DNA of 64,000 nt from Nymphon striatum. Lineage: Eukaryota. Below the pieces are notes generated by a model, which did no database searches, was not told the DNA's origin, and saw nothing but the letters and a program-made list of their open reading frames with translations. The translations under genes were made by a program, and so were the position numbers. This document shows positions 2,911 to 59,292 of this stretch, piece by piece (the stretch's first letter is position 1; every line of letters starts with the position of its first letter). Location: contig JABFOP010000225.1 of assembly GCA_016618385.1 (NCBI GenBank), forward strand, positions 79,735 to 143,734, read 5' to 3'.

Positions 2911-3689
2911 TAATTACTAAATTGGGGGGGGGGGTAAATGTTTTATGTTGCTATTAGAGAGGTCCTAGTAAAGTGTTTTAATTGACTTTTATTTTTTTAT
3001 GCCAATAGAATTAATTCAGACCTGCAGGAAAACGTCATCATAAAGTTGATGACTTTTTTTAATTTCAAGAAGAAAAATCCGTAGGCCTCTCTATTTAGTA
3101 TTATACTATAAGCACTAAATTTTAAGTAAATGAAACTTACAACATTTGTCATATGATTTAACACTTTATCATGGCAATTCTTGCTCACATTAGCAAGAAT
3201 AATATTTCGCAAATTTCTAAGCATTGCCATGTAGGGCAGTTTTCCATGATCTGGAAAAGACAATAAGCAAAAAAAAAAAGACAAAAAATTAAAGATTTGA
3301 AATCAACAGTTTTTTTCAATCTATTTAAATTTCTTGAATAATTTTTAAATACCAATAAGTTCTTCCCACACATGACTTTTATTACCACGCATTGATAAGG
3401 AAGTTTCCCAAGTTTCAGGGGTTGGCAATTTCATCCGCTTTCCAGCTAAATCTCTACTCCACACACCAGGCAAGCGACTTTGTCTGTAATCGTTTTCATT
3501 TTCAGGATATCTGGAACGAAATTTCAAGTAATACATTGTAATTAATTATAAGTGGCTAAGTGAAATTCAGAATCATTTTTGTTTTTTTAAGGAAAACGTC
3601 AGAAAGTATTTCATTTTAATAAATATTTTACTGAAATTTTGCATACATGTGTACATGCATACATATTATTTTTTCAAAAAGTCAATATC

Positions 3690-7941: not shown

Positions 7942-8223
7942 TTATGAATCATAAAAAATATATATTTTACCAAGTTGATATTCATCAAATTCAGAAAACT
8001 TTGAAATCATGGCAAATCTAAGTACAGTGGGAATGGAATGACGATTTATACTGTTATCATCAAAATACTGATATATTTCTGCAACATCAATCCAGTCTGT
8101 TGGAAGATTTATGGCCTTGTTAAAGTATTTCTTCAAATGACATCGGCATCTTTTGTCATAAGATGCATATGCCAACAGAAAGTTGGCAGTTGCTCTGATA
8201 TACAAATCCTTGCGAGTATACAA
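7942..8223 (-). CDS. Candidate exon of a host gene, minus strand, product unknown.
   Basis: A 93-aa ORF in non-repeat sequence, with plausible upstream exons at 8340-8460 and 8527-9048 in the same orientation. I recognise no domain. Confidence 0.3.
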   Translation of the reverse strand: MYTRKDLYIRATANFLLAYASYDKRCRCHLKKYFNKAINLPTDWIDVAEIYQYFDDNSINRHSIPTVLRFAMISKFSEFDEYQLGKIYIFYDS

Positions 8224-8526
8224 AGCAAGCTGTAAAAAAAAAGATGAAGCAAATTAATCTCTAGTCAAAATTAATGATGTGCCCAAATTAAGTAGAATAA
8301 GTTAGAATTTCTGAGAGATATTACTTTTAAAATGAACTCTGGGTCATATTCAGCCACAGCTATGGATTGTTTCATTATCATTTCCCTCATTGAGTCTTTC
8401 TTGTCTTTGAAATTTGGAGAGTGAAGTAATGAGGTACTAACCATGTTGATCAGTTTAAGCTATGTTGGAAATATAATAAATTAATGTATGCCATCTATGA
8501 CGATATTAATCTATTGAACAGATAAA

Positions 8527-12234: not shown

Positions 12235-12683
12235 GGTTTCTCCTTGAGGATGTGGAGAGTTTCAAGAATACGGAGGTCAAAAAGTTCTTGGCAGAATCTA
12301 TTATTTGAAAGTTATAAATATTGACGAGGGAAGAAGGTTTTAACGAGATGTTCCCTGATATAAGAATGAGGGGGGCATTGAAGAGGGAGACCAGTGCGGA
12401 CACTATGACCAAATTTCGTTGTCCACAGTCTTGAGGATCGGAGTACGTTGGGTTAACCTCACGTACTTTTCTTGCTAGAATCTCTGAATACCTTGGTCAT
12501 ATATATATAGTGTCTGCACTGGTCTCCCTCTTCAATGCCCCTCTCATTCTTACATCAAGGAACATCTCGTTAAATGTAAACCTTCTTCCCCCGTCAATAT
12601 TAATAACTTTCAAATAATAGATTTAGCCAATAACTTTTTTGACCCCCGTATTCTTGAAACTCTTCATATCCTAAGGAGAAACC
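12235..12683. mobile_element. Foldback/MITE with ~165-bp arms, nested in the 11.1-13.1-kb element.
   Basis: GGTTTCTCCTTGAGGATGTGGAGAGTTTCAAGAATACGGAGG... at 12235 is the reverse complement of ...CCCGTATTCTTGAAACTCTTCATATCCTAAGGAGAAACC ending at 12683. Confidence 0.75.
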
Positions 12684-12760
12684 TTCCATTAACCACGCTG
12701 ATAGCTCTTATAAATTATTCTTTTCCTTCACATGATATTTTTTTCTACTTCGATTATATT

Positions 12761-12868
12761 TATATTTTTGTATTTTTTGTATTTTTTGTATTTTTTGTAT
12801 TTTTTGTATTTTTTGTATTTTTTGTATTTTTTGTATTTTTTGTATTTTTTGTATTTTTGGTTTTTGTT
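12761..12868. repeat. Microsatellite (TATTTTTTG)n, about 12 units.
   Basis: Direct read. It produces the artefactual FLYFLYFLY ORF at 12732-12998. Confidence 0.95.
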
Positions 12869-13439
12869 TTTTTTTGTTTCGTCTCTTATTTGTTCACTTC
12901 GTTATTATCTGTTTTGGTGTAATCCGTTTAATTTGCTTTTTATTCAATTTCAGTTATATATTTTCACTGATGATGGCTCCGTGAGCCGAAACGTATGAAT
13001 CATGAATAAACTGTTTTTAAACGTTATTCTGGCCATTAGATATTTTCAAAAAGATCCCGATAGGTTTTAGTTATATGTTACCCTATATAGATCATATCGC
13101 TGGCTGAGAGCAAAAACATCGTAACTGATTTCCAAGAATTCACACAAACAATTCAGTTACGACGTGTTCACTCTAAATAAAAGAATACTCTGGCACATAC
13201 GATCTTTTTGCCCTCTTCTAGTGTCACTCCCAAGATCGTAAATCACATCGACCATGCAAAACTTGAATCCATGTTCATTGCCAAACAAGATTATGTCATA
13301 CACGTACTTATAATTGACAAAAATGGCACATACGATGTTTTTGCTCTCAGACAGCGATATGTTGTGTATGTTCGTGATTTCTTCTCTGAAAACAGATGCA
13401 TACTTGTTTTAAAGGAAAATACTTCGTCCCTCGGATTAA

Positions 13440-14838: not shown

Positions 14839-15450
14839 CCATTGTTTCTGTTCCTATATATGTAATGAAATAAATGTTAGAAATATTTACTGTTGAATCC
14901 CCACCAATTTGTAGCATTAGGGTTTTCACTTTCTCGCAAAACAAACAAAAAATCGAATCAAACATACGAAACTAAACTAAAATCAAAAAGGCAGATAAAC
15001 AGAAATAAAAGCTGAGTAAAAGAATTAACTTTTTGATGACTAGAACACTATATTTCCAGTTAGGTATATATACGAACAGTCATCGTTCGATTGTCCTTTC
15101 AGTCTTTTCTAGCACATACAATGATTTTACACGGCGGGTGTTGACAATTTAGCCAACTACTTTAGGAAATTCCAGCAATTTCAGTTGAATCTCAGAAATA
15201 GATTGGGTTTGTGATAGGAATAAAAGTATAGACACTTCAAGTTTCTTACAGTTATTGATTGACTCTTTCCTTTAAAATATGTCATTATAACTTTAAAATG
15301 TATTGACTGTAACATTAAATTGCGAACTTATTGTCTCGTATATCCGCTCAATGATGCCATTTTTAACCTATTTTCGTCATCAATTGAAAAGAAAAAGTTT
15401 TAGCGTTGCAAACAACAACGATTTTAAATCTGTGATAGGATATAATAGTT

Positions 15451-16023
15451 GTGAGTGTCAGCAGACATTATAGAATTCCAAGAAAAAAGAAAAAAGAAAT
15501 TAAAAGACGGATAGAAATATCCAGGAGAGCCTTCAACAACATGAAAGGCATTTTTGTGTCGAGGAAAATAAACATAAAACTGAAGTTAAGACTAGTAAAA
15601 TGTTACATATGGTCTATTTTACTATATGGCGTGGAGACATGGACAATAAGCAAAAAAATGGAGGAACGGCTAGAAGCATATGAAATGTGGATATATCGAA
15701 GAATTGGGAAGGTGTCATGGACTGAAAGAAAGACAAACGAATATGTTTTAAGAATGTTGGGCATCAAAAAGCAACTACTAAATATTGTGAAAGAACGGAA
15801 ATTAAAGTATTATGGACACATAAAGAGACACCAAACTGTTCAGAGAATTACACTGGAAGGAAAAGTCGAAGGAAAAAGATCACGTGGAAAACAGAGATTA
15901 AAGTGGGAAGACAACATCAAGGGGTGGACTAAACGCAGTATGGAAGAATGTGGCAGACTGGCAAAAGATAGAGTGGGCTGGAGAGTAATTGTAGCCAACC
16001 TTCGAAACGAAGACGGCACTTAA
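15451..16023 (+). mobile_element. LINE ORF2 C-terminal region (reverse-transcriptase thumb and tail), 5'-truncated copy.
   Basis: ...LLYGVETWTISKKMEERLEAYEMWIYRRIGKVSWTERKTNEYVLRMLG...KYYGHIKRH...GKRSRGKQRLKWEDNI... This is the standard LINE RT C-terminus (E.W......RL.AFEMW.YRR...ISW.D..TNE.VL...). Confidence 0.8.
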
Positions 16024-17966: not shown

Positions 17967-18227
17967 TCAAAATATCAACATTGCTTTTTCTTTCTTAGTC
18001 ATCCAACAATTCAAGCTCTCAAGATAGATCAACCTTTTTCTACCAGGACCTCGTTTGCCATTAATTTTTCCAGTAAGTGCAAGATGTTCAAGGCTTTTAT
18101 GTCGGTTCAAATGTCCAAAAAATTGCATTTGTCTTTTTCTGATTGTTTCTATTAATGATATTTCAGTTCCATCATTTTCTAATACAGGATTCCTTAGTTT
18201 TCTTTTCTTTTCTTTTTTTCCTTCCAC
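17967..18227 (-). mobile_element. LINE ORF2 tail fragment.
   Basis: ...LIETIRKRQMQFFGHLNRHKSLEHLALTGKINGKRGPGRKRL... (the GH..R / GKR.RGR block). Confidence 0.6.
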
Positions 18228-19231
18228 GAGATCTTAACATTCTTCTTAAAAACCACATCTCCGTAGCCTCTAATTTTTTCTTTAAAACTTCGTTAATAGT
18301 CCAATATTCGCAACCATATAAGAGCGTTGACCACACATAAGCCCTTTAAAACTCTATTTTTTATTGTCATTGAGATATTTCTGTTAGTAAGAATTGGTTT
18401 CATTTTATTAAAACTATCTTTGGCTATAGCAATTCCTCAGACCTACAATGTACTAAACAGCACAGCAGCTATATAACATGCCATATTATTATTCCATTAT
18501 TTGTACTGATTGCGCATACCTTTGTGAAAAATTTCTAAAATCATGCAGCAGAAATGACTGACGAACCGTTAAGAATGTGTGATGAATAATTTATAAAATT
18601 GTATAGGATATATAAATTGTGTAAGATAGCTTCAATATAAACGTAGCATGACGTTATGACGTTTTAGCAAGAGTTAGAACAACTCAATATGCTATTTAGA
18701 TAATAATGAAATCAGTGAACCAATAATGGAAAATGTATAAGTGTCTGGTACCATGTAGACTGTTCATTGTTTTAGCAAGGAAGACAACTGTGGTAAAAGG
18801 AAAGAAGAATGAGAAGGAAGTGATACATGAACAATTCTTAACAGATATAGAAATTGGAGTAGATATCAAAGGAACATATATGTTAATGGAGGTTAAGATC
18901 ACACCCGAAAGTGGAAACAGAAGCATAATAATTTTAGTGAAATTAAACGGGCACTGGAAGATATAATGTAGAGTATGATATTGATGAGACCGGAAATTAA
19001 CCACAGTGTAGTATGTACATGTAGAGAGAAAAGAGGTATGTAGTGTCTTATCAATAAGACACTACATACCTTACATATCTTATCAATAAGCGCTCTACCA
19101 TTTTGCAAATGAAGGAATAATAACATTTCACATATTAACTCCTCATTTTTAAGAAAGACAGACTCCGTCACTTAACAATGATCATAATTTCATAGAATGA
19201 TAAAAAAAGTTTAACACACTTTAGTCTCTAA

Positions 19232-20109: not shown

Positions 20110-20545
20110 ATATTCTTGTAGCCTCTGTGCAGAGTAATGGATAGCTCACCGATGTTGCAATTAGGAGGTGCGGGTTCGACTCCCGTCAGAGGTAAGAGTT
20201 ACTTTTTCTAACTCTTTATAGACGTCCTTATACTTGCTTCTTATCTGTTGTCTTCTTTCTCTTGGTTAGACTTTCTAAACACAACAGAAGCATCATTTTC
20301 GAAATCTCTTTGGTGGAATGACTTCGCTTTCACTCATGACTAGTACAGATAATGGTTTGAAATAATCTGATGAAGAAGCTGGTTCAGATGAGAAAATACT
20401 TCGTCCCTCGGAAAGGACTTTAAAAGAGGTACCGTGTAAAGGTGAGTCATACTCTTTGCACCTTAAAAGGAACCCAATTCACTAATTGAAGAAGTGTAGG
20501 GCTGGAGGTCCTGGTGTGTGGTACACCTGCATTATAGTCGTATAT
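20110..20545 (+). mobile_element. SINE-like copy with a tRNA-like head (B-box GGTTCGACTCC) and a SINE-A-related body.
   Basis: GCAGAGTAATGGATAGCTC...GGGTTCGACTCCCGTCAGAGG, then a body matching 13380-13640. It abuts the Tc1 TIR at 20553. Confidence 0.5.
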
Positions 20546-20552
20546 AACGTAT

Positions 20553-20625
20553 TACAGTGGTGGCCAAAAGTATTGCATCACTTGCACACTCCGAATTTTA
20601 TGAGGGATAATAACACATTTTAGTC
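20553..20625 (+). mobile_element. Tc1-like terminal inverted repeat (5' end): TACAGTGGTGGCCAAAAGTATTGCATCAC...
   Basis: A canonical Tc1-family terminus. A related direct copy sits at 23135 (TACACTACTGGCCAAAATTAATGAGCCAC). Confidence 0.65.
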
Positions 20626-21330
20626 GTATACCTTCCACTTCAAGCAGAGAGGTAGCTTGCTGCGCCAAACATTGTTCAGGAGACCAAAAGCTTGCCAACC
20701 TAGGGGGACCTGGGGAAACACGTCGCCTCACTTCAGGCTCCCAGTCTCTGTGTATTGAGATAAGCTGTCCTAAGTAAGTATAGTTATCAACTTGGTACAA
20801 TACCACATTTCCTGTCATAATGGGTTGGATTTCTACATTTCTGTTAAACATGACCTTAGTCTTACTCAAATTAATTTCTAAACCTACTTTATTACTGGCA
20901 GTTCTCAGTTCCTCAACCATCAGTTGAAGCTCCTGAGGGGACTCAGAGAACAGGACTACATCGTCGGAAAACCTGAGGTTGGTCAGGCTAACCCCATTTA
21001 TGGGGATTCATTTAGAAGTCCAGTTTAGGCATCTAAATACATTCTCCAAGCAAGCTGTAAATAGTTTTGGAGATATAGAATCTTCCCTATCTCACTCCTT
21101 TCTCTAATCTAATCTTTTTTGTATTGGTATGAAGCTATTTATATTAGAAGTTCCTAAGTCCAAAAATTTGGTCCAGCATTCTTATGTATGCTGGGGAAAT
21201 ATGTTGGGCATTTAAGGCATTTAGTACAGCCTGATGCTCTACTGAGTCAAACGCCTTCTTGTAATCAATAAACGCTAGGCACAGGGGTAGATTATATTCA
21301 TGATATTTTTTAATCACTTGATTAATCACT
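20626..21330 (-). mobile_element. LINE reverse-transcriptase domain fragment, truncated at both ends.
   Basis: Minus-strand ORFs give ...LAFIDYKKAFDSVEH... and ...VGLEINLSKTKVMFNRN...VDNYTYLGQ..., which are RT motifs. The reading frame is cut by the Tc1 TIR at 20553. Confidence 0.75.
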
Positions 21331-21399
21331 TGATCACTGTATGGATGTGATGTATGGATGACTGTATGGATGTGATCCTACCTGTACTAACGTATGGGT

Positions 21400-22134: not shown

Positions 22135-23098
22135 ATGAGACCTCAAACAAATGTGAGTAAAGAAAACCGCATTCGGGTGATTGTGCTGGCAGAAGAGGGA
22201 TATTCTGGTAGAGAAATGGCAGAAATAGTAGGTTGTAATCAATCCACAGTTTTCAGGATACTTTTAAAATATAAAAAAACTGGATCAACAAATGATTTGC
22301 CAAGATCAGGCACACCACGAAAGATATCAGCCCGTCAAGATCGAATTTAGTCTTAATTATCGCTTCTTGACATCACTAGATCTGCTTTCTCAATGGACAG
22401 AAAAGGGATCATTGAACGATTTGGGTGTGTCAACACAAACTAGTTCGACAAAGGCTTAATGATCTTGGCCTAAATGGGCGGAGAACAAGAAATAAGCCAC
22501 TATTAACAAATTCTCAGAGAATTCGACGAATAGCCTGGGCCAAAGAACATCGATCTTGGAGCGCTGAACAATGGGAAAAGGTGATTTATAGTCATGAATA
22601 ATTTCATCCTAATTGCTTAAGTGTGACAGTAAAGCATCCATTGAAAGCGATGGTCTGGGGATGCATGTCTGCAGCTGGCGTCGGCGCCTTCAAATTGTGC
22701 AAGGACTGATGAATGCAGCAAAATATATCGAAACTTTGCATACTAGAATGCGTCTCTCAGCAAAAGAAATGTTTCCAGGTGAAGATTTTGTCTTTCAAGA
22801 TGATAATGCGCCATGTCACCGAGAAAAAGTTGTCAAGGATTGGTTTGCAGCACACAACCTCAAGCGTTTAGATTGGCCTGCCCAGTCCCCGGACTTAAAC
22901 CTAATTGAGAATGAATGGCATAAAATTGGGTACGAGATCTCAAAAAAGAAACCCACCACAAAAAAAGATCTAATTGAAGCCCTTGTCGCATCATGTCATC
23001 GAATAATCTCTTCGGATCTCTTGAAAAAGTTGGTTTTATCAATGCCGGAGCGCTGTTCAGCCGTCATTAAATCTAAAGGATGGCCAACCAGATACTAA
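22135..23098 (+). pseudogene. Tc1-like transposase gene, frameshifted and slightly internally deleted.
   Basis: N-terminal helix-turn-helix (RIRVIVLAEEGYSGREMAEIVGCNQSTVFRIL...SGTPRKISARQDR). The middle is readable across frames (LNGRRTRNKPLLTNSQRIRRIAWAKEH..WS.EQWEKVI.S..). C-terminal DDE region (FQDDNAPCHREKVVKDWF....LDWPAQSPDLNLIENEW......SMPERCSAVIKSKGWPTRY). Confidence 0.85.
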
Positions 23099-33672: not shown

Positions 33673-33957
33673 CTCTCATGTTCGATATTAATCCATTTTG
33701 ATCTGACCTCCTGCTTCCTCAACATCTGCTGTGGAAGCTGACGGTGTGCCAGCCGGACACTGTAGTTTGCTCACGGAAGTTATGAATTTCTTGAGGGCAG
33801 CTCCTTTACCGATACCATATAGGCGGGATGTAGTGTCACACCCATGATCACATTGTAGTGAACTTTTAGTTTTTGTATTTTCAAAGTTGAAAAGGTAGTT
33901 CAGTGTTATTGCACCAAATCTGTACTGCAAATAATAATGTGTAGCGAACATAAATCT

Positions 33958-34252
33958 ACAAGAATACGCAACAAAATTCATTCTAAATAAAACGGCCATG
34001 TAGGGATGCTATTGAATGTTAACTTACTACTCCTACATCATGTGCTAACTAACAAACATGTATACATTACTGCCTCTTTGCCTCTGTATACACAAAGTGT
34101 TTGTTGAAATGAAACACAGTGTACTGTGAGGTGGTTCTGGAGGCAGTATAATGTAGGGGTTGCTAGTGCATGATGTAGGAGTAATAAGTTATCATTCAAT
34201 AGCATCCAGACATGGCCTTTTTATTTAGAATAAATTTGTTTGTGTATTCTTG
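33958..34252. repeat. Foldback with ~95-bp inverted arms and a ~95-bp loop.
   Basis: CAAGAATACGCAACAAAATTCATTCTAAATAAAACGGCCATGTAGGGATGCTATTGAATG... is inverted to ...CATTCAATAGCATCCAGACATGGCCTTTTTATTTAGAATAAATTTGTTTGTGTATTCTTG. Confidence 0.7.
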
Positions 34253-34445: not shown

Positions 34446-36309
34446 TAACGGTATTTATTAGCTAAGTTAAAGCTTATATGCTATACTTCATATCAGCTAA
34501 TTAATTATTTAATAGTAGAAGATAAGGTTCTGGATAGCGCTCTAGATGATAGCATCAAAATATATGTCTTTGTTACAACCACTAAGTCTGTACGCTTGTC
34601 TTATGATTATCTTAAACACATAAGAAAAGTCAATTTTGAAAGTTCCGTTTTTTTTTTTAATATTTGCGGGTGTTGTAGAATGATCTGCTGCTGTCTTTTT
34701 TATTCTCTAAAGGTACTTTACCCATGGGTACTTAAGTTTACCCATCGGTTTTTAAGGTCCCATCACGCCTAACACATGGTAATAAAACATACCCTGAGAC
34801 AAGAATGCAAATGGAAATAATAACACTAATAATAATTTCCCAATCAGGAATGAATTATTTTTTTGACCACTGAATTTCGTTCAAATTTTGTTCAAAAGAA
34901 AGTGAAGGACATAGAATTTGAAGTGAACACGAATTGTTTAACAGACATCATTAGCATCTATTTTTAGCAAAGTGTGAAAGCAACCTTTCCCATTATGTTT
35001 TTCGCTAATGCGTATTGGTTCCAGTACATTGGCGTCAGAGCTTATCTCGTGTCGTCCGGCATGCACAAAATTGGCCATTTTATTAATCTTCCAGCTAAAT
35101 GCAAAATTCTGGCATTACACTCGAACGATCATCGACCACACATTCTGTAATAGCTCATAACATACATAGCCAGTACATAATTAACATGATCATTATTATA
35201 TCTTTAGTGAAGGTAGTTGTTATCATAAATTGTAGTACTTAAAGGCAGCTTTCTTGTCCTGGTCGTCGTTTATTGGAAGCACAAACATCTCAGAGAATGA
35301 AAAATGATATTGCCAGCTTTTGAGAAGAGTATTACAATTTCTTGAATAAGAAATTATTACGGACTGTTAATCTTTGCATACGCTATTTACTTCTGCCTTA
35401 TTTAGTCCTTACACTCATCTCATATTTATGCTTCTTATTAATGGGATTTTGAATCCATATCAAATCATTGATTCTTTTCAATACAATTCGATTACCTTGT
35501 ACTTTTCTTAGACTACAAAATGTTTTTTTTTTTTATTATATTTACTGACATTTGAAAAAAAAATAAAAATAGATATATTAAGAACTGCAATTGGAAACTC
35601 TACTTTGGCTGAAAAATAATTTAAATTGCAGAACAATTGTGTTTTATGATTCATATTTCAAAATTGTTGCTTATCCGAATTTCTTAATTTTTGTCGTTCT
35701 TGACTGTATAGTCCAGACAACTGATCCTCAAAAGAGGCTGAACTCGGACAAAATTCATACAGAAACTTATGTTTTCTGAAAGTTCAATGTCTGTAATATT
35801 CATACACAAAAGTTTCCAAAAGTTCTTGCCTGGGAAACCCTACAATGCCAAGATGGCGTCAAGATAGCTGCCATAGCTTCACATGCCAGCTTCACTCCTC
35901 TTGTTTTTGGAACCAATAAAGATATGGGATGAAGATATGGGAATGCCAAAAGTTTGTCTCTGCATTATCTACAAAATTAGCAGAGAAACAAAACGAAGAG
36001 TATTCGGTGATAATTTCATGGCTTCGTGTTCGTTTTATCTATCGCTATTACAAGGGCGACACTCCTCTGCGTCAGAGGTTCGGGAACCCCATTTCGGAAT
36101 CGAGATCATGAAATTTTAGGGAAGATTTTAGACTTAACAACGTTGAAAGCAACATTTACTGATCTTTCGTGTTGGTCAAATTGTATATAAATTGTATATA
36201 AATTGAATTATTGTTTTCACAATCACTGTTTAAATTATGTTCATATATTTAGTTTTTAATTTTTTATTATTTTTACTTTACTTCCATTTTACTGTATGGC
36301 TATGTAAGT

Positions 36310-39300
36310 CGCTTTGTTTTTTCTTATAAATAAATTAGAGTATTACTCTTAGCTATTAATGAATTTCTAGGTTTAGAGGCTCCAACAAACCAACTTCCAA
36401 CATCTAATAGTTTGTATCATAGAAATAGCTTCTAATTTCAATTTTGTGGTGGTTGTCGGTTATAGGTCATATATTCTCAGGTGAGAATGAAAATCAAAGA
36501 ATAAGTATTTTATAGGTCCAATTTCGTACTCTTATTAGCGCATATCGCTTAGATGGCTGTTAGAAGTACATTTATTGATGCTATTATTCTATTTTGTGGC
36601 ATTAGTTAAAAGTCTAGTTTTTTCATAAATCTTCCATCAAATGTTCAGTTATTAATGAATTTCACGGTTTATAGGCTCCAACAAACCAACTCGGAACATC
36701 TAATAGTTTGTATCATAGAAATAGCTTCTAATTTCAATTTTGTGGTGAATGTCGGTTATAGGTCATATATTCTCAGGTGAGAATGAAAATCGAAAATTTA
36801 CTATTTTATAGGTCCAATTCGTACTCTTAAAAGCGCAAATCGCTTAGATGGATGTTAGAATACAGTTATTGATGCTATTATTCTATTTTGTAAAAGTGCT
36901 AGTTTTTTCATAAATCTTGCATCAAATGTTCAGTTATTAATGAATTTCACGGTTTATAGGCTCCAACAAACCAACTCGGAACATCTAATAGTTTGTATCA
37001 TAGAAAAAGCTTCTAATTTCAATTTTGAGGCGGTAGTCGGTTATAGGTCATATATTCTCAGAATGAAAATCGAAAAAAAATAAAAGAATAAAAATAAAGT
37101 AATTTATAGGTCGAATTCGTACTCCAAATCGCGTATATGAATCAATCTTATATGAACGTATATGAACCAATCTTAGATGGCTGTAAGAAGTACAGTTATT
37201 GTTGCTATTAATCCATTTTGTGACATTAGTTAAATGGCGAGTTTTTTTTATAAATTTTGCATCAAATTTTCAGTTATTAATAAATTTCACGGTTTAGAGG
37301 CTCCAACAAACCAACTTCGAACATCTAATAGTTTGTATCATAGAAATAGCTTCTAATTTCAATTTTGTGGCGGTACTCTTATTTACTTATTCACTTAAAT
37401 TTACTTAGAATTCGTACTCTTAATAGCGCATATCGCATAGATGGCTGTTAAAAGTACATTTATTGATGCTATTATTCTATTTTGTGGCATTAGTTAAAAG
37501 GCTAGTTTTTTCGTAAATCTTCCATCAAGTTCAGTTATTAATGAATTTCTAGGTTTAGAGGCTCCAACAAACCAACTTCGAACTTCTAATAGTTTGTATC
37601 ATAGAAATAGCTTTTAATTTCAATTTTGTGGCGGTAGTCGGTTATAGGTCATGTATTCTCAGGTGAGAATGAAAATCGAAAATAAACTATTTTATAGGTC
37701 CAATTCGTACTCTTAATAGCGCGTATCGCATAGATGGCTGTTAGAATACAGTTATTGATGCTATTATTCTATTTTGTAAAAGTGCTAGTTTTTTCATAAA
37801 TCTTGCATCAAATGTTCAGTTATTAATGAATTTCTAGGTTTAGAGGCTCCAACAAACCAACTTCGAACTTCTAATAGTTTGTATCATAGAAATAGCTTTT
37901 AATTTCAATTTTGTGGCGGTAGTCGGTTATAGGTCATGTATTCTCAGGTGAGAATGAAAATCGAAAATAAACTATTTTATAGGTCCAATTCGTTCTCTTA
38001 AAAGCGCAAATCGCTTAGATGGCTGTTAGAATACAGTTATTGATGCTATTATTCTATTTTGTGGCATTAGTTAAAAGGCTAGTTTTTTCGTAAATCTTCC
38101 ATCAAATGTTCAGTTATTAATGAATTTCTAGGTTTAGAGGCTCCAACAAACCAACTTCGAACTTCTAATAGTTTGTATCATAGAAATAGCTTTTAATTTC
38201 AATTTTGTGGCGGTAGTCGGTTATAGGTCATGTATTCTCAGGTGAGAATGAAAATCGAAAATAAACTATTTTATAGGTCCAATTCGTACTCTTAATAGCG
38301 CGTATCGCATAGATGGCTGTTAGAATACAGTTATTGATGCTATTATTCTATTTTGTAAAAGTGCTAGTTTTTTCATAAATCTTGCATCATATGTTCAGTT
38401 ATTAATGAATTTCTAGGTTTAGAGGCTCCAACAAACCAACTTCGAACTTCTAATAGTTTGTATCATAGAAATAGCTTTTAATTTCAATTTTGTGGCGGTA
38501 GTCGGTTATAGGTCATGTATTCTCAGGTGAGAATGAAAATCGAAAATAAACTATTTTATAGGTCCAATTCGTTCTCTTAAAAGCGCAAATCGCTTAGATG
38601 GCTGTTAGAATACAGTTATTGATGCTATTATTCTATTTTGTAAAAGTGCTAGTTTTTTCATAAATCTTGCATCAAATGTTCAGTTATTAATGAATTTCTA
38701 GGTTTAGAGGCTCCAACAAACCAACTTCGAACATCTAATAGTTTGTATCATAGAAATAGCTTTTAATTTCAATTTTGTGGCGGTAGTCGGTTATAGGTCA
38801 TGTATTCTCAAGTGAGAATGAAAATCGAAAATAAACTATTTTATAGGTCCAATTTCGTACTCTTAATAGCGCGTATCGCATAGATGGCTGTTAGAAGTAC
38901 ATTTATTGATGCTATTATTCTATTTTGTGGCATTAGTTAAAAGTCTAGTTTTTTCATAAATCTTCCATCAAATGTTCAGTTATTAATGAATTTCACGGTT
39001 TATAGGCTCCAACAAACCAACTCGGAACATCTAATAGTTTGTATCATAGAAATAGCTTCTAATTTCAATTTTGTGGTGAATGTCGGTTATAGGTCATATA
39101 TTCTCAGGTGAGAATGAAAATCAAAAATTTACTATTTTATAGGTCCAATTCGTTCTCTTAAAAGCGCAAATCGCTTAGATGGATGTTAGAATACAGTTAT
39201 TGATGCTATTATTCTATTTTGTAAAAGTGCTAGTTTTTTCATAAATCTTGCATCAAATGTTCAGTTATTAATGAATTTCACGGTTTATAGGCTCCAACAA

Positions 39301-42300
39301 ACCAACTCGGAACATCTAATAGTTTGTATCATAGAAAAAGCTTCTAATTTCAATTTTGAGGCGGTAGTCGGTTATAGGTCATATATTCTCAGAATGAAAA
39401 TCGAAAAAAAATAAAAGAATAAAAATAAAGTATTTTATAGGTCGAATTCGTACTCCAAATCGCGTATATGAATCAATCTTATATGAACGTATATGAACCA
39501 ATCTTAGATGGCTGTAAGAAGTACAGTTATTGTTGCTATTAATCCATTTTGTGACATTAGTTAAATGGCGAGTTTTTTTTATAAATTTTGCATCAAATTT
39601 TCAGTTATTAATAAATTTCACGGTTTAGAGGCTCCAACAAACCAACTTCGAACATCTAATAGTTTGTATCATAGAAATAGCTTCTAATTTCAATTTTGTG
39701 GCGGTACTTTTATTTACTTATTCACTTAAATTTACTTAGAATTCGTACTCTTAATAGCGCATATCGCATAGATGGCTGTTAAAAGTACATTTATTGATGC
39801 TATTATTCTATTTTGTGGCATTAGTTAAAAGGCTAGTTTTTTCGTAAATCTTCCATCAAATGTTCAGTTATTAATGAATTTCTAGGTTTAGAGGCTCCAA
39901 CAAACCAACTTCGAACTTCTAATAGTTTGTATCATAGAAATAGCTTTTAATTTCAATTTTGTGGCGGTAGTCGGTTATAGGTCATGTATTCTCAGGTGAG
40001 AATGAAAATCGAAAATAAACTATTTTATAGGTCCAATTCGTACTCTTAATAGCGCGTATCGCATAGATGGCTGTTAGAATACAGTTATTGATGCTATTAT
40101 TCTATTTTGTAAAAGTGCTAGTTTTTTCATAAATCTTGCATCAAATGTTCAGTTATTAATGAATTTCTAGGTTTAGAGGCTCCAACAAACCAACTTCGAA
40201 CTTCTAATAGTTTGTATCATAGAAATAGCTTTTAATTTCAATTTTGTGGCGGTAGTCGGTTATAGGTCATGTATTCTCAGGTGAGAATGAAAATCGAAAA
40301 TAAACTATTTTATAGGTCCAATTCGTTCTCTTAAAAGCGCAAATCGCTTAGATGGCTGTTAGAATACAGTTATTGATGCTATTATTCTATTTTGTGGCAT
40401 TAGTTAAAAGGCTAGTTTTTTCGTAAATCTTCCATCAAATGTTCAGTTATTAATGAATTTCTAGGTTTAGAGGCTCCAACAAACCAACTTCGAACTTCTA
40501 ATAGTTTGTATCATAGAAATAGCTTTTAATTTCAATTTTGTGGCGGTAGTCGGTTATAGGTCATGTATTCTCAGGTGAGAATGAAAATCGAAAATAAACT
40601 ATTTTATAGGTCCAATTCGTACTCTTAATAGCGCGTATCGCATAGATGGCTGTTAGAATACAGTTATTGATGCTATTATTCTATTTTGTAAAAGTGCTAG
40701 TTTTTTCATAAATCTTGCATCAAATGTTCAGTTATTAATGAATTTCTAGGTTTAGAGGCTCCAACAAACCAACTTCGAACTTCTAATAGTTTGTATCATA
40801 GAAATAGCTTTTAATTTCAATTTTGTGGCGGTAGTCGGTTATAGGTCATGTATTCTCAGGTGAGAATGAAAATCGAAAATAAACTATTTTATAGGTCCAA
40901 TTCGTTCTCTTAAAAGCGCAAATCGCTTAGATGGCTGTTAGAATACAGTTATTGATGCTATTATTCTATTTTGTGGCATTAGTTAAAAGGCTAGTTTTTT
41001 CGTAAATCTTCCATCAAATGTTCAGTTATTAATGAATTTCTAGGTTTAGAGGCTCCAACAAACCAACTTCGAACTTCTAATAGTTTGTATCATAGAAATA
41101 GCTTTTAATTTCAATTTTGTGGCGGTAGTCGGTTATAGGTCATGTATTCTCAGGTGAGAATGAAAATCGAAAATAAACTATTTTATAGGTCCAATTCGTT
41201 CTCTTAAAAGCGCAAATCGCTTAGATGGCTGTTAGAATACAGTTATTGATGCTATTATTCTATTTTGTGGCATTAGTTAAAAGGCTAGTTTTTTCGTAAA
41301 TCTTCCATCAAATGTTCAGTTATTAATGAATTTCTAGGTTTAGAGGCTCCAACAAACCAACTTCGAACTTCTAATAGTTTGTATCATAGAAATAGCTTTT
41401 AATTTCAATTTTGTGGCGGTAGTCGGTTATAGGTCATGTATTCTCAGGTGAGAATGAAAATCGAAAATAAACTATTTTATAGGTCCAATTCGTTCTCTTA
41501 AAAGCGCAAATCGCTTAGATGGCTGTTAGAATACAGTTATTGATGCTATTATTCTATTTTGTGGCATTAGTTAAAAGGCTAGTTTTTTCGTAAATCTTGC
41601 ATCAAATGTTCAGTTATTAATGAATTTCTAGGTTTAGAGGCTCCAACAAACCAACTTCGAACTTCTAATAGTTTGTATCATAGAAATAGCTTTTAATTTC
41701 AATTTTGTGGCGGTAGTCGGTTATAGGTCATGTATTCTCAGGTGAGAATGAAAATCGAAAATAAACTATTTTATAGGTCCAATTCGTTCTCTTAAAAGCG
41801 CAAATCGCTTAGATGGCTGTTAGAATACAGTTATTGATGCTATTATTCTATTTTGTGGCATTAGTTAAAAGGCTAGTTTTTTCGTAAATCTTCCATCAAA
41901 TGTTCAGTTATTAATGAATTTCTAGGTTTAGAGGCTCCAACAAACCAACTTCGAACTTCTAATAGTTTGTATCATAGAAATAGCTTTTAATTTCAATTTT
42001 GTGGCGGTAGTCGGTTATAGGTCATGTATTCTCAGGTGAGAATGAAAATCGAAAATAAACTATTTTATAGGTCCAATTCGTACTCTTAATAGCGCGTATC
42101 GCATAGATGGCTGTTAGAATACAGTTATTGATGCTATTATTCTATTTTGTAAAAGTGCTAGTTTTTTCATAAATCTTGCATCAAATGTTCAGTTATTAAT
42201 GAATTTCTAGGTTTAGAGGCTCCAACAAACCAACTTCGAACTTCTAATAGTTTGTATCATAGAAATAGCTTTTAATTTCAATTTTGTGGCGGTAGTCGGT

Positions 42301-45300
42301 TATAGGTCATGTATTCTCAGGTGAGAATGAAAATCGAAAATAAACTATTTTATAGGTCCAATTCGTTCTCTTAAAAGCGCAAATCGCTTAGATGGCTGTT
42401 AGAATACAGTTATTGATGCTATTATTCTATTTTGTGGCATTAGTTAAAAGGCTAGTTTTTTCGTAAATCTTCCATCAAATGTTCAGTTATTAATGAATTT
42501 CTAGGTTTAGAGGCTCCAACAAACCAACTTCGAACTTCTAATAGTTTGTATCATAGAAATAGCTTTTAATTTCAATTTTGTGGCGGTAGTCGGTTATAGG
42601 TCATGTATTCTCAGGTGAGAATGAAAATCGAAAATAAACTATTTTATAGGTCCAATTCGTACTCTTAATAGCGCGTATCGCATAGATGGCTGTTAGAATA
42701 CAGTTATTGATGCTATTATTCTATTTTGTAAAAGTGCTAGTTTTTTTCATAAATCTTGCATCATATGTTCAGTTATTAATGAATTTCTAGGTTTAGAGGC
42801 TCCAACAAACCAACTTCGAACTTCTAATAGTTTGTATCATAGAAATAGCTTTTAATTTCAATTTTGTGGCGGTAGTCGGTTATAGGTCATGTATTCTCAG
42901 GTGAGAATGAAAATCGAAAATAAACTATTTTATAGGTCCAATTCGTTCTCTTAAAAGCGCAAATCGCTTAGATGGCTGTTAGAATACAGTTATTGATGCT
43001 ATTATTCTATTTTGTAAAAGTGCTAGTTTTTTCATAAATCTTGCATCAAATGTTCAGTTATTAATGAATTTCTAGGTTTAGAGGCTCCAACAAACCAACT
43101 TCGAACATCTAATAGTTTGTATCATAGAAATAGCTTTTAATTTCAATTTTGTGGCGGTAGTCGGTTATAGGTCATGTATTCTCAAGTGAGAATGAAAATC
43201 GAAAATAAACTATTTTATAGGTCCAATTTCGTACTCTTAATAGCGCGTATCGCATAGATGGCTGTTAGAAGTACATTTATTGATGCTATTATTCTATTTT
43301 GTGGCATTAGTTAAAAGTCTAGTTTTTTCATAAATCTTCCATCAAATGTTCAGTTATTAATGAATTTCACGGTTTATAGGCTCCAACAAACCAACTCGGA
43401 ACATCTAATAGTTTGTATCATAGAAATAGCTTCTAATTTCAATTTTGTGGTGAATGTCGGTTATAGGTCATATATTCTCAGGTGAGAATGAAAATCAAAA
43501 ATTTACTATTTTATAGGTCCAATTCGTTCTCTTAAAAGCGCAAATCGCTTAGATGGATGTTAGAATACAGTTATTGATGCTATTATTCTATTTTGTAAAA
43601 GTGCTAGTTTTTTCATAAATCTTGCATCAAATGTTCAGTTATTAATGAATTTCACGGTTTATAGGCTCCAACAAACCAACTCGGAACATCTAATAGTTTG
43701 TATCATAGAAAAAGCTTCTAATTTCAATTTTGAGGCGGTAGTCGGTTATAGGTCATATATTCTCAGAATGAAAATCGAAAAAAAATAAAAGAATAAAAAT
43801 AAAGTATTTTATAGGTCGAATTCGTACTCCAAATCGCGTATATGAATCAATCTTATATGAACGTATATGAACCAATCTTAGATGGCTGTAAGAAGTACAG
43901 TTATTGTTGCTATTAATCCATTTTGTGACATTAGTTAAATGGCGAGTTTTTTTTATAAATTTTGCATCAAATTTTCAGTTATTAATAAATTTCACGGTTT
44001 AGAGGCTCCAACAAACCAACTTCGAACATCTAATAGTTTGTATCATAGAAATAGCTTCTAATTTCAATTTTGTGGCGGTACTTTTATTTACTTATTCACT
44101 TAAATTTACTTAGAATTCGTACTCTTAATAGCGCATATCGCATAGATGGCTGTTAAAAGTACATTTATTGATGCTATTATTCTATTTTGTGGCATTAGTT
44201 AAAAGGCTAGTTTTTTCGTAAATCTTCCATCAAATGTTCAGTTATTAATGAATTTCTAGGTTTAGAGGCTCCAACAAACCAACTTCGAACTTCTAATAGT
44301 TTGTATCATAGAAATAGCTTTTAATTTCAATTTTGTGGCGGTAGTCGGTTATAGGTCATGTATTCTCAGGTGAGAATGAAAATCGAAAATAAACTATTTT
44401 ATAGGTCCAATTCGTACTCTTAATAGCGCGTATCGCATAGATGGCTGTTAGAATACAGTTATTGATGCTATTATTCTATTTTGTAAAAGTGCTAGTTTTT
44501 TCATAAATCTTGCATCAAATGTTCAGTTATTAATGAATTTCTAGGTTTAGAGGCTCCAACAAACCAACTTCGAACTTCTAATAGTTTGTATCATAGAAAT
44601 AGCTTTTAATTTCAATTTTGTGGCGGTAGTCGGTTATAGGTCATGTATTCTCAGGTGAGAATGAAAATCGAAAATAAACTATTTTATAGGTCCAATTCGT
44701 TCTCTTAAAAGCGCAAATCGCTTAGATGGCTGTTAGAATACAGTTAATGATGCTATTATTCTATTTTGTAAAAGTGCTAGTTTTTTCATAAATCTTGCAT
44801 CAAATGTTCAGTTAATGAATTTCTAGGTTTAGAGGCTCCAACAAACCAACTTCGAACATCTAATAGTTTGTATCATAGAAATAGCTTTTAATTTCAATTT
44901 TGTGGCGGTAGTCGGTTATAGGTCATGTATTCTCAAGTGAGAATGAAAATCGAAAATAAACTATTTTATAGGTCCAATTTCGTACTCTTAATAGCGCGTA
45001 TCGCATAGATGGCTGTTAGAAGTACATTTATTGATGCTATTATTCTATTTTGTGGCATTAGTTAAAAGTCTAGATTTTTCATAAATCTTCCATCAAATGT
45101 TCAGTTATTAATGAATTTCACGGTTTATAGGCTCCAACAAACCAACTCGGAACATCTAATAGTTTGTATCATAGAAATAGCTTCTAATTTCAATTTTGAG
45201 GCGGTAGTCGGTTATAGGTCATATATTCTCAGAATGAAAATCGAAAAAAAATAAAAGAATGAAAATAAAGTATTTTATAGGTCGAATTCGTACTCCAAAT

Positions 45301-46480
45301 CGCGTATATGAATCAATCTTATATGAACGTATATGAACCAATCTTAGATGGCTGTAAGAAGTACAGTTATTGTTGCTATTAATCCATTTTGTGACATTAG
45401 TTAAATGGCGAGTTTTTTTTATAAATTTTGCACCAAATTTTTAGTTATTAATAAATTTCACGGTTTAGAGGCTCCAACAAACCAACTTCGAACATCTAAT
45501 AGTTTGTATCATAGAAATAGCTTCTAATTTCAATTTTGTGGCGGTAATCTTATTTACTTATTCACTTAAATTTACTTAGAATTCGTACTCTTAATAGCGC
45601 ATATCGCATAGATGGCTGTTAAAAGTACATTTATTGATGCTATTATTCTATTTTGTGGCATTAGTTAAAAGGCTAGTTTTTTCGTAAATATTCCATCAAA
45701 TGTTCAGTTATTAATGAATTTTTAGGTTTAGAGGCTCCAACAAACCAACTTCGAACATCTAATGGTTTGTAATATAGAAATAGCTTCTAATTTCAATTTT
45801 GTGGTGGTAGTCGGTTATAGGTCATGTATTCTCAGATGAGAATGAAAATCGAAAAATAAGTATTTTATAGGTCCAATTCGTACTCTTAATAGCGCATTTC
45901 GCTTAGATGCCTGTTAGAAGTACATTTATTGATGCTATTATTCTATTTTGTGGCATTAGTTAAGAGGCTAGTTTTTCCATAAATTTTGCATCAAATTTTC
46001 AGTTATTAATGAATTTCACGGTTTATAGGCTCCAACAAACCAACTCGGAACATCTAATAGTTTGTATCATAGAAATAGCTTCTAATTTCAATTTTGAGGC
46101 GGTAGTCGGTTATAGGTCATATATTCTCAGGTGAGAATGAAAATCGAAAATTAAGTATTTTATAGGTCCAATTTCGTAATCTTATTAGCGCATATCGCTT
46201 AGATGGCTGAAAGAAGTACTGATGGCTGATTGATGTTATTTTGTGGCATTAGCATTAAAGGGCTAGTTTTTCCATAAATATTTCATCAAATGTTCAGTTA
46301 TTAATTAATTTCACGATTTAGAGGCTCCAAGGCTCCAACAAACCAACTTCGAACATCTAATAGTTTGTATCATAGAAATAGCTTCTAATTTCAATTTATT
46401 GGCGGTAGCCGGTTATAGGTCATATATTCTCAGGTGAGAATGAAAATCAAAAATTAAATATTTTATAGGTCCAATTCGTA
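36310..46480. repeat. Satellite DNA array, ~10.2 kb, about 35 monomers of 261-340 bp (mode ~285-300), with higher-order repeat structure.
   Basis: The monomer landmark GTTATTAATGAATTTC(T/C)A(G/C)GTTTA(G/T)AGGCTCCAACAAACCAACT recurs at 36352, 36652, 36937, 37277, 37538, 37822, 38117, 38402, 38683 ... There are two main alternating variants (GTGGCATTAGTTAAAAGGCTAGTTTTTTCGTAAATCTTCC versus GTAAAAGTGCTAGTTTTTTCATAAATCTTGC). A ~900-bp three-monomer block marked by the insertion AAAAAAAATAAAAGAATAAAAATAAAG recurs at 37076, 39408, 43782 and 45246. Confidence 0.95.
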
Positions 46481-46789
46481 CTGATGACCTCCATGACCAT
46501 GGATTGGGTGGTGTTTTCATTGACTGGGGCTAAAGAGACACTCTCTTATCACAGGTGTCCTCGAATTGTTACTTGAACGTAATATTTGCACCTCTATCTA
46601 CAGTTTTATACTGTTTGACCTATATGACCTACAGCTTGTCAAGTGACCGCTTGTTTCAGGTGATTAACATTGAAAATAAATCGTAGATGGCAGGCGTCTG
46701 CCCATCGCAGGATCTGTACAAGACAGGTTTTCCTGTGTTCAGTGCATATGGGCATTTTGTAAATATAATATAATATAATATAGCAAGGT

Positions 46790-47540
46790 ATTCATCCTTG
46801 AATAAGCTACGCGTCCACTTGTTTGCATCTATCTTGTTTGTATCTCCAACAGAAGATGAGTTTCACTTCCACGTTCTCAGGAACCTTTGTCAGATCAGCT
46901 TCACTCAAATCTAGTGCAAATCTAGTGCTTCTTCCACCTGAAGACTATGGCAGAATTGTGGATAAATAATAGGTTAATTTCTGTCAAGAAGAGCATGCCA
47001 TCAAATCCTTCTACTGCAAAGTTGAAGTACTGCTATTGCAAGAAAAACCGAACTGATTGGGGAATTTCCTTTGTGCGGAAGCTGAAACATGCATTATTGC
47101 ATATGCCAGAGAAAGTCGACATAGGAAAATATAAACGGTTCATTACTGATGATGATGGTGACACTTTTGTACCGTATACTTAAATATTAATTATATGTAG
47201 TTTTTGCTATTATTTTTCAATTTATGCAAATCTAAATTTAATTACTGCTATTCAATCCATTCAGTCCTGTGCCATAACAAATTAGAGGAATGCAAAGATG
47301 CAACATATTTTGGGTTATTTTGGGTTATTCTGGATATATCAGGATATATCTGGATATATCAAGTATGTAAAAATGTGAATTATTTGATAAAGTTGTTAAA
47401 TTTTCAGCTTAACCAACTTTTATATTAAACAAGTTGTTAAGTAACAACTTGTTTCATAAAAAAGTTAAATTTTGTGAGGTAAATTTGTTGCATTTACTCC
47501 TTCCTGTATTATGGGATTTCAATTGAATTTCCCCTACAAT
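46790..47540 (+). mobile_element. Second, degenerate copy of the window-start element: the CXC-ORF 3' part (46790-47183, with stops) plus downstream region ending ...TTCCCCTAC.
   Basis: TTCATCCTTGAATAAGCTACGCGTCCACTTGTTTGCATCT matches 85-125. ...PSTAKLKY.YCKKNRTD... parallels ...PSAAKLKYRKCKKKPN... Both copies end near ...(C)AGTTTCCCCTAC (1268 / 47538). Confidence 0.7.
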
Positions 47541-57143: not shown

Positions 57144-57331
57144 CAGTTATATAAGCATATATGAGAGAGATTAAGCTATAAGGAGATTGTCGGAATTATT
57201 ATCGAAGATCAAAAATATTATAAACAATAGTTGCTTACCAGCTACTATTGTTTATAATATTTTTGATCTTCGATAATAATTCCGACAATCTCCTTATAGC
57301 TTAATCTCTCTCATATCTGCTTATATAACTG
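57144..57331. repeat. Near-perfect palindrome. Two ~94-bp arms around a centre near 57237, with one mismatch in the arms.
   Basis: CAGTTATATAAGCATATATGAGAGAGATTAAGCTATAAGGAGATTGTCGGAATTATTATCGAAGATCAAAAATATTATAAACAATAGTTGCT is followed by its reverse complement (AGCTACTATTG...CTTATATAACTG). Confidence 0.95.
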
Positions 57332-57470: not shown

Positions 57471-58867
57471 TAAGTGCTTCGTGCTGCTAAAGCATAAAAC
57501 AAAATTTTTGCTGGGATTACACGCCTTTACATTGGGGAGGAAAGTTCTCAGGAATATTGAACTTTATTCAACTCACAAGCACTAAGTGATTCCCCTCTTT
57601 CATACGTTACTTTTATTGCAATGATTGTGGTACACTTATTATGCAACTCCTACCTTCAGCTGTCAACATTTTTTCCATTTTATTACGTTCCAGGGAAGAG
57701 ATCCGGTGGCATGTCCCTCCGGAAAAGCTTAGAAAATTTAAAGCTCTGTAGTGTATTCTGGAAGTTTTTAAGATTTATTCTTGGAGATTTATAAAACACT
57801 ACTCATTTGCCTTGCTATTCAATGTATAATCGACGTTTATTATTTGTTTTTAAATTTTATTCATATTAATCCACAATTTTCACAATTTTTTATAATTTAT
57901 TTATTCAAGTATATTTATACAAACAATTCTTAATAATTTTAATTGTTTTTATCAATTATATAATAAATACACTTGATCCCACAGAGCAGCGCCGAGGATA
58001 AAAAATTGATCAAATTGAGCAGTTTTATTTAATTAATTAAAATACAAAACAACGGAGGAATTGTTAATCTGTTTTTATCTTGATGACCTCAACTTAGTTA
58101 TTATGCATTGTGTAGAAGTTGACGCATCTACGCGACCCAGAAGAGATTGAATTTGGGGAAACTGAGCATTCGAACTGGGCAGGAATCCTGGCGGAAATTT
58201 ATTGAACTAAATTTAGGAAATTTAAATATAGATGACGCCTTTCCTCGAACTGGCAAGGTAGGAAATTATGCAGGGATTGGACACATTAATGGAAACACTT
58301 AGTGAATTATAGAGATTCTTTATTAATATGGTATGGAACCACCTTCAGCTTGAATAACAGATCGAATTCGTTTTGACTTTGAATTATATAAACGTTGAAT
58401 TGTGTTTAATGGAAAATTCTTGAACCATTGTTTATGCAAAACCTCTTGAATTTCCTTCCGAGATGCTGGAGGAGGATATCCGTTTCGTACTATGTTTTCT
58501 AAAACAGGCCATATGATGTTAAAACGATGTTAAGGTCTGGTGACTGTTGTGGTCAGGGAACTTGTTTAAATTCACTTTCATGTTCTTAAAACCTGTCTGA
58601 AGCACACCCAAAGATGCCTCTAATCCCGACTGACTGTCTAATGTCAATAATAAAGTATAGATAAATATAGAGCAATGGTAAATCAAGGGAACGCCCAAGA
58701 TCAGTTAGTACAGTTATAATTGGATCATCATCTTTCAAGAGCAATAAATGTTGTACCCACTTACGTTTCAATATTCCTGAGAACTTTCCTCCCCAATCTG
58801 CCCCTGTAAAGGCATGTAATCCCAGAAAAGATTTTGTTTTATGCTTTAGCAGCACGAAGCACTTAAT
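57471..58867. mobile_element. ~1.4-kb unit bounded by ~100-bp inverted repeats (57471-57575 / 58765-58867). It contains a Tc1/mariner-like transposase C-terminal remnant (minus strand, about 58250-58560) and the ORF 58586-58855.
   Basis: The reverse complement of 58765-58867 aligns with 57471-57575. Minus-strand translation gives ...FPDHNSHQTLTSF..ACFRKHSTKRISSSSISEGNSRGF..TMVQEFSIKHNSTFI, which loosely fits the Tc1/mariner WP..SPDL... / ...A.I.A.GG tail. The inverted repeat itself encodes the peptide LHAFTGADWGGKFSGI. Confidence 0.45.
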
Positions 58868-59292
58868 AGCATCTCATACAGTCGATATTACGTTGATTCT
58901 TTTCTTTTCCTGATACTATATACAACTTCAATGAACACAGCGAATCATAGATTTCAGGCAACAAAGGGCTATTACAGTGTCGGCCTCTTTGTGGTCATGT
59001 TCTATCATATGTGACCCACCACAGCAAAATGAGTCGTGATTCGCAAAATTGAGATTTGGAGTTATAAATACCAATAGAAAGATAAGAATGTCAGCTTTCA
59101 TTAAATCCAAACAGCTTTTCAATCCATCAACCGGTTACCGAATTATGACATTTTAAAGATGCCAGGGTATCGGAGATAAAAATAAAAAATATTCTGAGAT
59201 AATTGATCTTAAACATCATCATAATTGTAAGTTGTGAAACGTGTGTGAATTCAGCGAGAACTGTCGTCTGCCATCAATGAACAACATAGTAA

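Follow-up and report, generated by a model that had tools for sequence, protein, structure and literature searches.

A 10-kb tandem array with an eight-monomer higher-order unit, probably a satellite, in the sea spider Nymphon striatum

Extent and anatomy of the array

We analysed a 64,000-bp stretch of the draft genome of the sea spider Nymphon striatum (assembly GCA_016618385.1, contig JABFOP010000225.1, positions 79,735 to 143,734 of the forward strand), referred to below as the window, in which a tandem array of ~290-bp monomers, probably a non-coding satellite, occupied positions 36351..46482 on the + strand. All coordinates are numbered from the first base of the window. The array as a whole was delimited using Tandem Repeats Finder (TRF), an anchor scan, a MAFFT alignment of the monomers, their identity matrix and a consensus. 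TRF, run on the 64-kb window, reported 36354-46482 as one array with a period of 285, 34.6 copies, 81% matches and a score of 11781, and showed no other repeat coming close, in agreement with a first-pass annotation of the same sequence that had named the array the largest single structure in the window. The window was free of N, of assembly gaps and of soft-masking.

Monomer starts were mapped using the invariant 17-mer AGTTATTAATGAATTTC with ≤3 mismatches, and a start at 44810, which carries a 3-bp deletion, was added. In this way, 35 starts were located on the + strand of the window, the first at 36351 and the last at 46296, and none on the minus strand, such that the array consisted of 34 full monomers and one cut at 187 bp, uninterrupted over 10.1 kb. 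The ~35 head-to-tail monomers described at first pass were therefore recovered by TRF, the anchor scan and the MAFFT alignment, and the long, uninterrupted array in a single orientation is of the kind that characterises a satellite. Monomers ranged from 261 to 340 bp in length and fell into classes of 285, 294, 296, 340 and 261–263 bp, most being 285, 294 or 296 bp long. The consensus monomer was 294 bp with a GC content of 31.6%, and begins AGTTATTAATGAATTTCTAGGTTTAGAGGCTCCAACAAACC. The array had a GC content of 31% and a mild strand asymmetry, with a GC skew of ~+0.06 to +0.10 and an AT skew of ~−0.08 to −0.10.

Within every monomer, a 29-bp direct repeat (GCTTTTAATTTCAATTTTGTGGCGGTAGT / GCTATTATTCTATTTTGTGGCATTAGT) recurred at a lag of 148 bp, for example at 40228-40256 and 40376-40404. 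This 29-bp repeat, the only internal one found, weakly suggests that the ~290-bp monomer derives from an old half-unit of ~147 bp; its score was reached by 5 of 300 shuffles.

Both ends of the array differed somewhat from those first assigned. On the left, the array had been started at 36310; recognisable repeat was found from ~36351 only, and the 300 bp preceding it resembled the monomer no better than shuffled sequence. On the right, the abrupt end was borne out, at 46482 rather than 46480, but the transposon fragment said to lie next to it was found ~300 bp away, at 46784. The array stopped at approximately consensus position 179 of its last monomer, without microhomology to the continuation that would have been expected there.

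In the 54 kb of the window outside the array, no diverged or solo monomers were detected below E = 1, either by BLASTN self-comparison or by nhmmer (--max) with a monomer profile. Four monomer strings were also searched in the full text of the literature, which returned 0 papers and no similarity to any searchable satellite. Of two metagenome scans, one returned 0 matches and the other 11 chance matches of 18–30 bp, and scans of prokaryote genomes and of viruses for the monomer returned 0 matches.

The coding and RNA content of the array was assessed in several ways. No open reading frame (ORF) of ≥50 amino acids was found on either strand of the array, and the most abundant monomer types (E and F, defined below) had none of ≥25 amino acids; short ORFs of 40–47 amino acids recurred in types B, C and D. 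Ten short ORFs from the array were looked up by exact match in a collection of 15 billion proteins, where none was present, and phmmer found no homologue of the 47-amino-acid ORF in a set of 1.84 billion representative proteins. Rfam returned nothing for the array at the gathering threshold, and nothing at E ≤ 1 for a 1.8-kb segment in which types H, B, C, D, E and F are represented, and no transfer RNA (tRNA) was called in the array by ARAGORN. The array was thus non-coding and free of known RNA genes, as is usual for a satellite. An origin of the monomer from an RNA family, or from a tRNA or short interspersed nuclear element (SINE), was rejected, since Rfam at both thresholds and ARAGORN were empty for the array. 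Two structural candidates were rejected as well: folding of the DNA as a single strand gave z = −0.47 relative to shuffles, and AA/TT periodicity at 9.5–11.5 bp, as a sign of intrinsic curvature, was no higher than in shuffles.

Monomer types and the higher-order unit

Monomers aligned with MAFFT were assigned to types by all-vs-all identity at a distance cut-off of 1.5%. Ten types (A-J) were distinguished among the 34 full monomers, and the truncated last monomer was labelled K, such that the array (monomers m1 to m35) reads A B C D E F E G H B C D E F E F F F F E F E G H B C D E G H C D I J K. Identity within types was 98.8–100% and between types 81–98%, with C and D as outliers that were 81–89% identical to all other types, and adjacent monomers differed by 2–18%. 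The first-pass annotation had proposed higher-order repeat (HOR) organisation, to be withdrawn if the identity matrix showed uniform divergence; the matrix was strongly blocked, and the proposal stands.

The order of types recurred along the array. Mean identity by lag peaked at 8 (0.936) and 15 (0.947) monomers, compared to ~0.91 elsewhere, and multi-monomer segments were 99.2–100% identical to each other against 82–98% for adjacent monomers, which is the identity relationship that defines an HOR. Monomers m2-8 were 99.66% identical to m10-16, the H-B-C-D-E block at m9-13 was 100% identical to that at m24-28, and the right-hand C-D pair (m31-32) was 98.84% identical to the remaining C-D pairs. 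When the type string was shuffled 100,000 times, 0 shuffles reached 3 runs of BCD and 3 reached 4 runs of CD, which shows the order to be strongly non-random. Overall, a fixed order of eight monomers, E F E G H B C D, was present twice intact with partial copies on either side. Reiteration of a regular unit many times over was not seen, as the array held 2 intact and 2 partial units with a run of E and F between them, and the spacing of the C monomers, used as a marker, was irregular (2331, 4374 and 1466 bp).

Read from left to right on the + strand, the array began with a partial unit, A B C D, at 36351..37532, delimited by the identity matrix and segment comparison (m2-5 vs m10-13, 99.66% identity), in which monomer A was an older relative of H (95% identity). 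The first intact copy of E F E G H B C D (2333 bp) followed at 37533..39865, and matched the second copy save for a 1-bp indel in a T run. Next to it, at 39866..41905, was a local expansion reading E F E F F F F, seven monomers of 285 or 294 bp that were resolved by the identity matrix and a self-match scan; its exact self-matches lay at an offset of 579 bp (830 bp long) and at an offset of 294 bp (587 bp long). E and F are the two youngest monomer types. The second intact unit, again recognised by the identity matrix and segment comparison, occupied 41906..44239 and was followed at 44240..45705 by a deleted unit, E G H C D, which in the alignment and identity matrix was without F, E and B. 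The right edge (45706..46482) consisted of the diverged monomers I, J and the truncated K, which were 81–93% identical to all other types. An exact-repeat scan additionally revealed a 2844-bp perfect duplication on the + strand, with copies at 37529..40372 and 41902..44746 (offset 4373/4374), the sole difference between which was a 1-bp indel inside a T run.

This map refined the architecture described at first pass, in which a three-monomer block of ~900 bp recurred four times in the flanks and a ~580-bp dimer filled the core. The block is real and corresponds to B-C-D (888 bp), and its marker coordinates (37076, 39408, 43782 and 45246) lie within the C monomers starting at 36932, 39263, 43637 and 45103. 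Three of the four occurrences were complete; the fourth contained C-D only, with H running straight into C at 45103. The insertion attributed to one variant was present in C, not as a single 45-bp A-rich piece but as 13 bp of A-rich sequence plus a separate 31 bp with a 25-bp tandem duplication. At 340 bp, C exceeded the 296-bp types A and H by 44 bp, and TRF reported its 25-bp duplication four times. The deletion variant was likewise real and corresponds to D (261–263 bp), which had a deletion of 29–32 bp and a rewritten stretch of ~20 bp. As for the core, two tandem E-F dimers were found but strict alternation was not, the core reading E F E F F F F E F E G, and the span given for the dimers (~39.9-43.3 kb) ran on into the start of the second intact unit. 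Thus, higher-order organisation was upheld but its nesting was not: a single 8-monomer, 2333-bp unit accounts for what had been taken for triplets in the flanks and a dimer in the core.

A table of informative sites revealed that several monomers were mosaics. G had the F state in its first two-thirds and the E state, including an 11-bp deletion, in its last third; H was E-like in its 5' part and A-like in its 3' part; and the 5' part of B was common to C and J and its 3' part common to E. In the identity matrix, the edge monomers A, I, J and K were the most diverged. From this pattern we infer that about eight diverged monomer types would have been amplified and homogenised jointly as the unit E F E G H B C D, and that misaligned repeats may since have reshaped the array through in-register unequal exchange, gene conversion or both. 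Exchange or conversion of this kind would explain the hybrid monomers G and H, the very recent 2.8-kb duplication, the local run of E and F monomers, the absence of entire monomers (F and E, and B) that the last unit would have lost, the further signs of monomer gain and loss (E G vs E F E G, H C vs H B C, and the FFFF run) and the survival of older, diverged monomers at both edges. In the accepted model of satellite evolution, adjacent monomers co-amplify into higher-order units, and the centres of arrays are homogenised better than their ends (PMC5615363). The position of the most diverged monomers at the edges fits the expectation that homogenisation is more efficient in the centre (PMC5615363).

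The sequence around the array

To the left of the array, a short, frameshifted ORF remnant (...SWLRVRF / LSIAITRATLLCVRGSGTPFRN) without a Pfam match was located at 35877..36116 on the + strand, which may be the tail of a transposon and lies outside the repeat. Between this remnant and the array was an AT-rich spacer, with an 11-bp ×2.5 microrepeat at 36178-36205. To the right, 300 bp (46483-46783) separated the array from a degenerate, frameshifted copy of an interspersed element at 46784..47420 (+), which was 71% identical at the nucleotide level to the element at 79-758. This element was unclassified, with degenerate copies at 1-1226 and 46784-47420, and its ORF at 33-488 (...LPPTEDAFHFHVLRSLCQ...) had homologues only among unnamed metagenome proteins (49–82% identity), mostly from ENA assembly ERZ25072293. 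A 353-bp ×1.9 tandem repeat (550-1226) followed the copy at the start of the window. Two minus-strand ORFs, at 33691-34008 (...GCDTTSRLYGIGKG...) and 58589-58873 (...GLHAFTGADWGGKFSG...), may belong to the same element family, to judge by an impression of motif resemblance.

BLASTN self-comparison showed that the window was dense in interspersed repeats. Fragments of long interspersed nuclear element (LINE) reverse transcriptase were found at 15439-16020 (+), 17970-18233 (-) and 20555-21377 (-). The reverse-transcriptase tail at 15658-15975 agreed at 99–100% identity over 97–106 amino acids with three Nymphon striatum protein models at NCBI, in keeping with the species of the assembly, and the next-best matches were ≤54% identical. 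These three models overlapped the window solely in the LINE-derived segment, and the window does not represent their loci; the tail matched the N-termini of the models Endophilin-B1 and GQR58_028094, which look like chimeras of a host gene and a transposon. A tRNA-like sequence at 20121-20194 (+; Rfam RF00005, 39.8 bits, E = 6.5e-5), for which ARAGORN made no call, adjoined the LINE fragments and is possibly a tRNA pseudogene or the head of a SINE. At 22613-23095 (+) lay the remnant of a Tc1/mariner-type transposase, in which a DDE_3 domain was recognised (E = 2.4e-12), and one further ORF in the window matched transposase-type helix-turn-helix families, including HTH_SB.

Other repeats in the window included a second small tandem array at 1619-2153 (170-bp unit, 3.1 copies, 95% matches), which was unrelated to the main satellite. 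Two palindromes were detected, one of 639 bp and 78.5% at 12137-12775, abutting a (TTTTTGTAT)×12.8 microsatellite at 12765-12877, and one of 188 bp and 95.7% at 57144-57331; both are possibly foldback elements or elements resembling miniature inverted-repeat transposable elements (MITEs).

Exons of a TROVE-domain host gene (Ro60 or TEP1-like) were present on the minus strand at 7945-8253 and 3000-3302 (Pfam E = 5.5e-25 and 4.6e-8), aligning with profile positions 61-154 and 298-337, respectively. The sole database homologue of the first of these exons was a Logan contig from run SRR24188320 (88% amino acid and 81% nucleotide identity), the source of which is presumably a related pycnogonid, and the exon had no match among the protein models of N. 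striatum.

Origin and possible roles of the array

Overall, the locus is best described as a bounded, ~10-kb, non-coding array of one ~290-bp satellite family, organised around an 8-monomer, 2.33-kb higher-order unit and changed by exchange or conversion, a description to which we give a probability of roughly 0.78. We also infer no sequence-specific role for the array in the cell, other than as repeat or heterochromatin-prone DNA at this locus. Among its closest counterparts are short interstitial or euchromatic arrays known from arthropods, including Drosophila 1.688 and the TCAST-like repeats of Tribolium (PMC5615363), which likewise have a complex monomer, form short, bounded arrays amid transposon fragments, lie within tens of kb of a gene and carry locally homogenised variants; unlike these, the array described here belongs to the lineage Pycnogonida and has no sequence similarity to searchable satellites.

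Certain observations weigh against this description. The CpG observed/expected ratio was 1.12 in the array, i.e. without depletion, compared to 0.70 (depleted) in the remaining window, and CpG sites held 8 of the 32 transition-only variable columns of the array. This CpG level, which the proposed history does not explain, could mean that the array is young or unmethylated. Consensus polishing could have inflated the perfect identity of the 2.8-kb copies, and a centromeric or other functional role is possible, given that a single locus was examined.

The effect of assembly was considered separately, as a real array might owe part of its fine architecture to assembly or polishing, namely the perfection of the 2.8-kb duplication and the precise count of E and F monomers. 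The N. striatum draft (732 Mb; scaffold N50, 702 kb) was built from long reads of a pool of 40 individuals (PMC12220506). Pooling of individuals favours such an artefact, and a consensus that collapses copies can yield a 2844-bp match of 100% identity broken by a single homopolymer indel. However, the read N50 is reported as 19.4 kb (PMC12220506), which exceeds the length of the array, so that single reads can span it, and private variants have been retained, including one common to m7 and m22 and unique changes in m18, m29, m30 and m4, which blanket homogenisation would have erased. The monomer order was also backed by older, non-identical copies on the left (99.66%) and on the right (98.84%). 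We therefore regard a partly artefactual architecture as unlikely.

Multi-level organisation of this kind had been described at first pass as typical of centromeric or pericentromeric satellites, and the window might take in the margin of a centromere-associated repeat or one of its small islands. True higher-order organisation, an AT-rich monomer (31.6% GC) and the interspersed-repeat and transposon fragments that crowd both flanks all agree with such a location, as do the diverged edge monomers, which recall the monomeric flanks of centromeric arrays; moreover, long arrays collapse in draft assemblies, and a longer original array is conceivable here. Similarity to the HORs of primate alpha-satellite lay at the level of organisation. 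In both, diverged monomers were co-amplified as a multi-monomer unit, units were at least 99% identical with monomers inside a unit differing by up to ~18%, and a homogeneous centre was bordered by diverged edges and accompanied by variant units that had gained or lost whole monomers. In contrast, there was no sequence relationship between them, the monomer measured ~290 bp rather than 171 bp, and the array contained 10 kb and ~3.5 units, compared to megabases and hundreds to thousands of units in alpha-satellite, and had no CENP-B box.

Higher-order structure is a by-product of unequal exchange wherever this occurs and is not specific to centromeres. At this locus, the array was just 10.1 kb long, with non-satellite DNA on each side in a gap-free window, and was not resumed in the remaining 17.5 kb rightward or 36 kb leftward (BLAST and nhmmer). 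A very long array, of hundreds of kb to Mb, dominating a gene-free region was thus not found, and the TROVE-domain host exons, at 3.0-8.3 kb, lay ~28 kb from the array. The CENP-B-like box TTCGNNNNANNCGGG had 0 matches in the window, which also counts against a centromere, although the box is found in some lineages only and is not expected universally. Short satellite arrays are, in addition, scattered in euchromatin (PMC5615363). A centromeric or pericentromeric location of this array is thus weakly disfavoured, with nothing that is testable in the window supporting it, and we consider it improbable. The broader proposal, that the ~290-bp repeat is the centromere-specifying satellite of Nymphon striatum, or, in its extreme version, that scattered ~10-kb arrays of it act as the units of a repeat-based holocentromere as in Rhynchospora, appeared more doubtful still; the resemblance to the Tyba holocentromere arrays of Rhynchospora (cited within PMC5615363) was purely formal, with one array in 64 kb here.

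Transposon-like fragments lay within 250–300 bp of both ends of the array, which would be consistent with a tandem repeat carried by or derived from a transposon, either as the expanded internal repeat of a Helitron/Helentron, foldback or MITE-like element or as an outgrowth of the 3' end of a neighbouring element. Helitrons and Helentrons of bivalves carry tandem repeats, and resemble this locus in that a tandem array adjoins transposon-derived sequence; unlike in these elements, the window had no element termini, terminal inverted repeats, recurrent flanks or dispersed copies. Transposition has also been proposed as an important means of satellite spread in Tribolium castaneum, where transposons and satellites are interspersed (PMC5615363). 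A comparison of the 1-kb flanks found no element termini around the array, that is, no common terminal inverted or direct repeats and no target-site duplications, the best match being 12 bp long and far from the junctions, and BLASTN self-comparison found no inverted self-matches involving the flanks. The two flanks were also different, unrelated fragments, and no solo or short monomer copies occurred in the 54 kb of repeat-rich flanking DNA. Collinear alignment of the left flank to the monomer scored 58, and 161 of 300 dinucleotide shuffles scored as high or higher, so that an origin of the monomer from left-flank sequence was rejected. These results render a transposon-borne array very unlikely. 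Finally, a tandem series of functional genes, whether small RNA genes or a repetitive protein-coding gene, would suit monomers of 285 and 294 bp, which are divisible by 3, and the recurring ORFs of 40–47 amino acids in B, C and D, but was effectively refuted by the frame-disrupting monomers of 296, 340 and 261–263 bp and by the absence of longer ORFs, protein homologues, Rfam families and excess secondary structure.

A satellite array shaped by exchange thus remains the preferred description. Higher-order satellite arrays are textbook products of unequal exchange, and the biology seen here is not new in itself. No published satellite DNA or cytogenetics for any sea spider was found in a literature search. 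The window was visibly dense in repeats, in contrast to the repeat content of 7.14% reported for N. striatum, where it was called an outlier (PMC12220506). The clean consensus and the map of monomer types provide a ready probe for fluorescence in situ hybridisation and CenH3 work, as well as a marker for the collapse of repeats in the assembly. If the family were to prove centromeric, it would help to fill a gap in the centromere biology of chelicerates.

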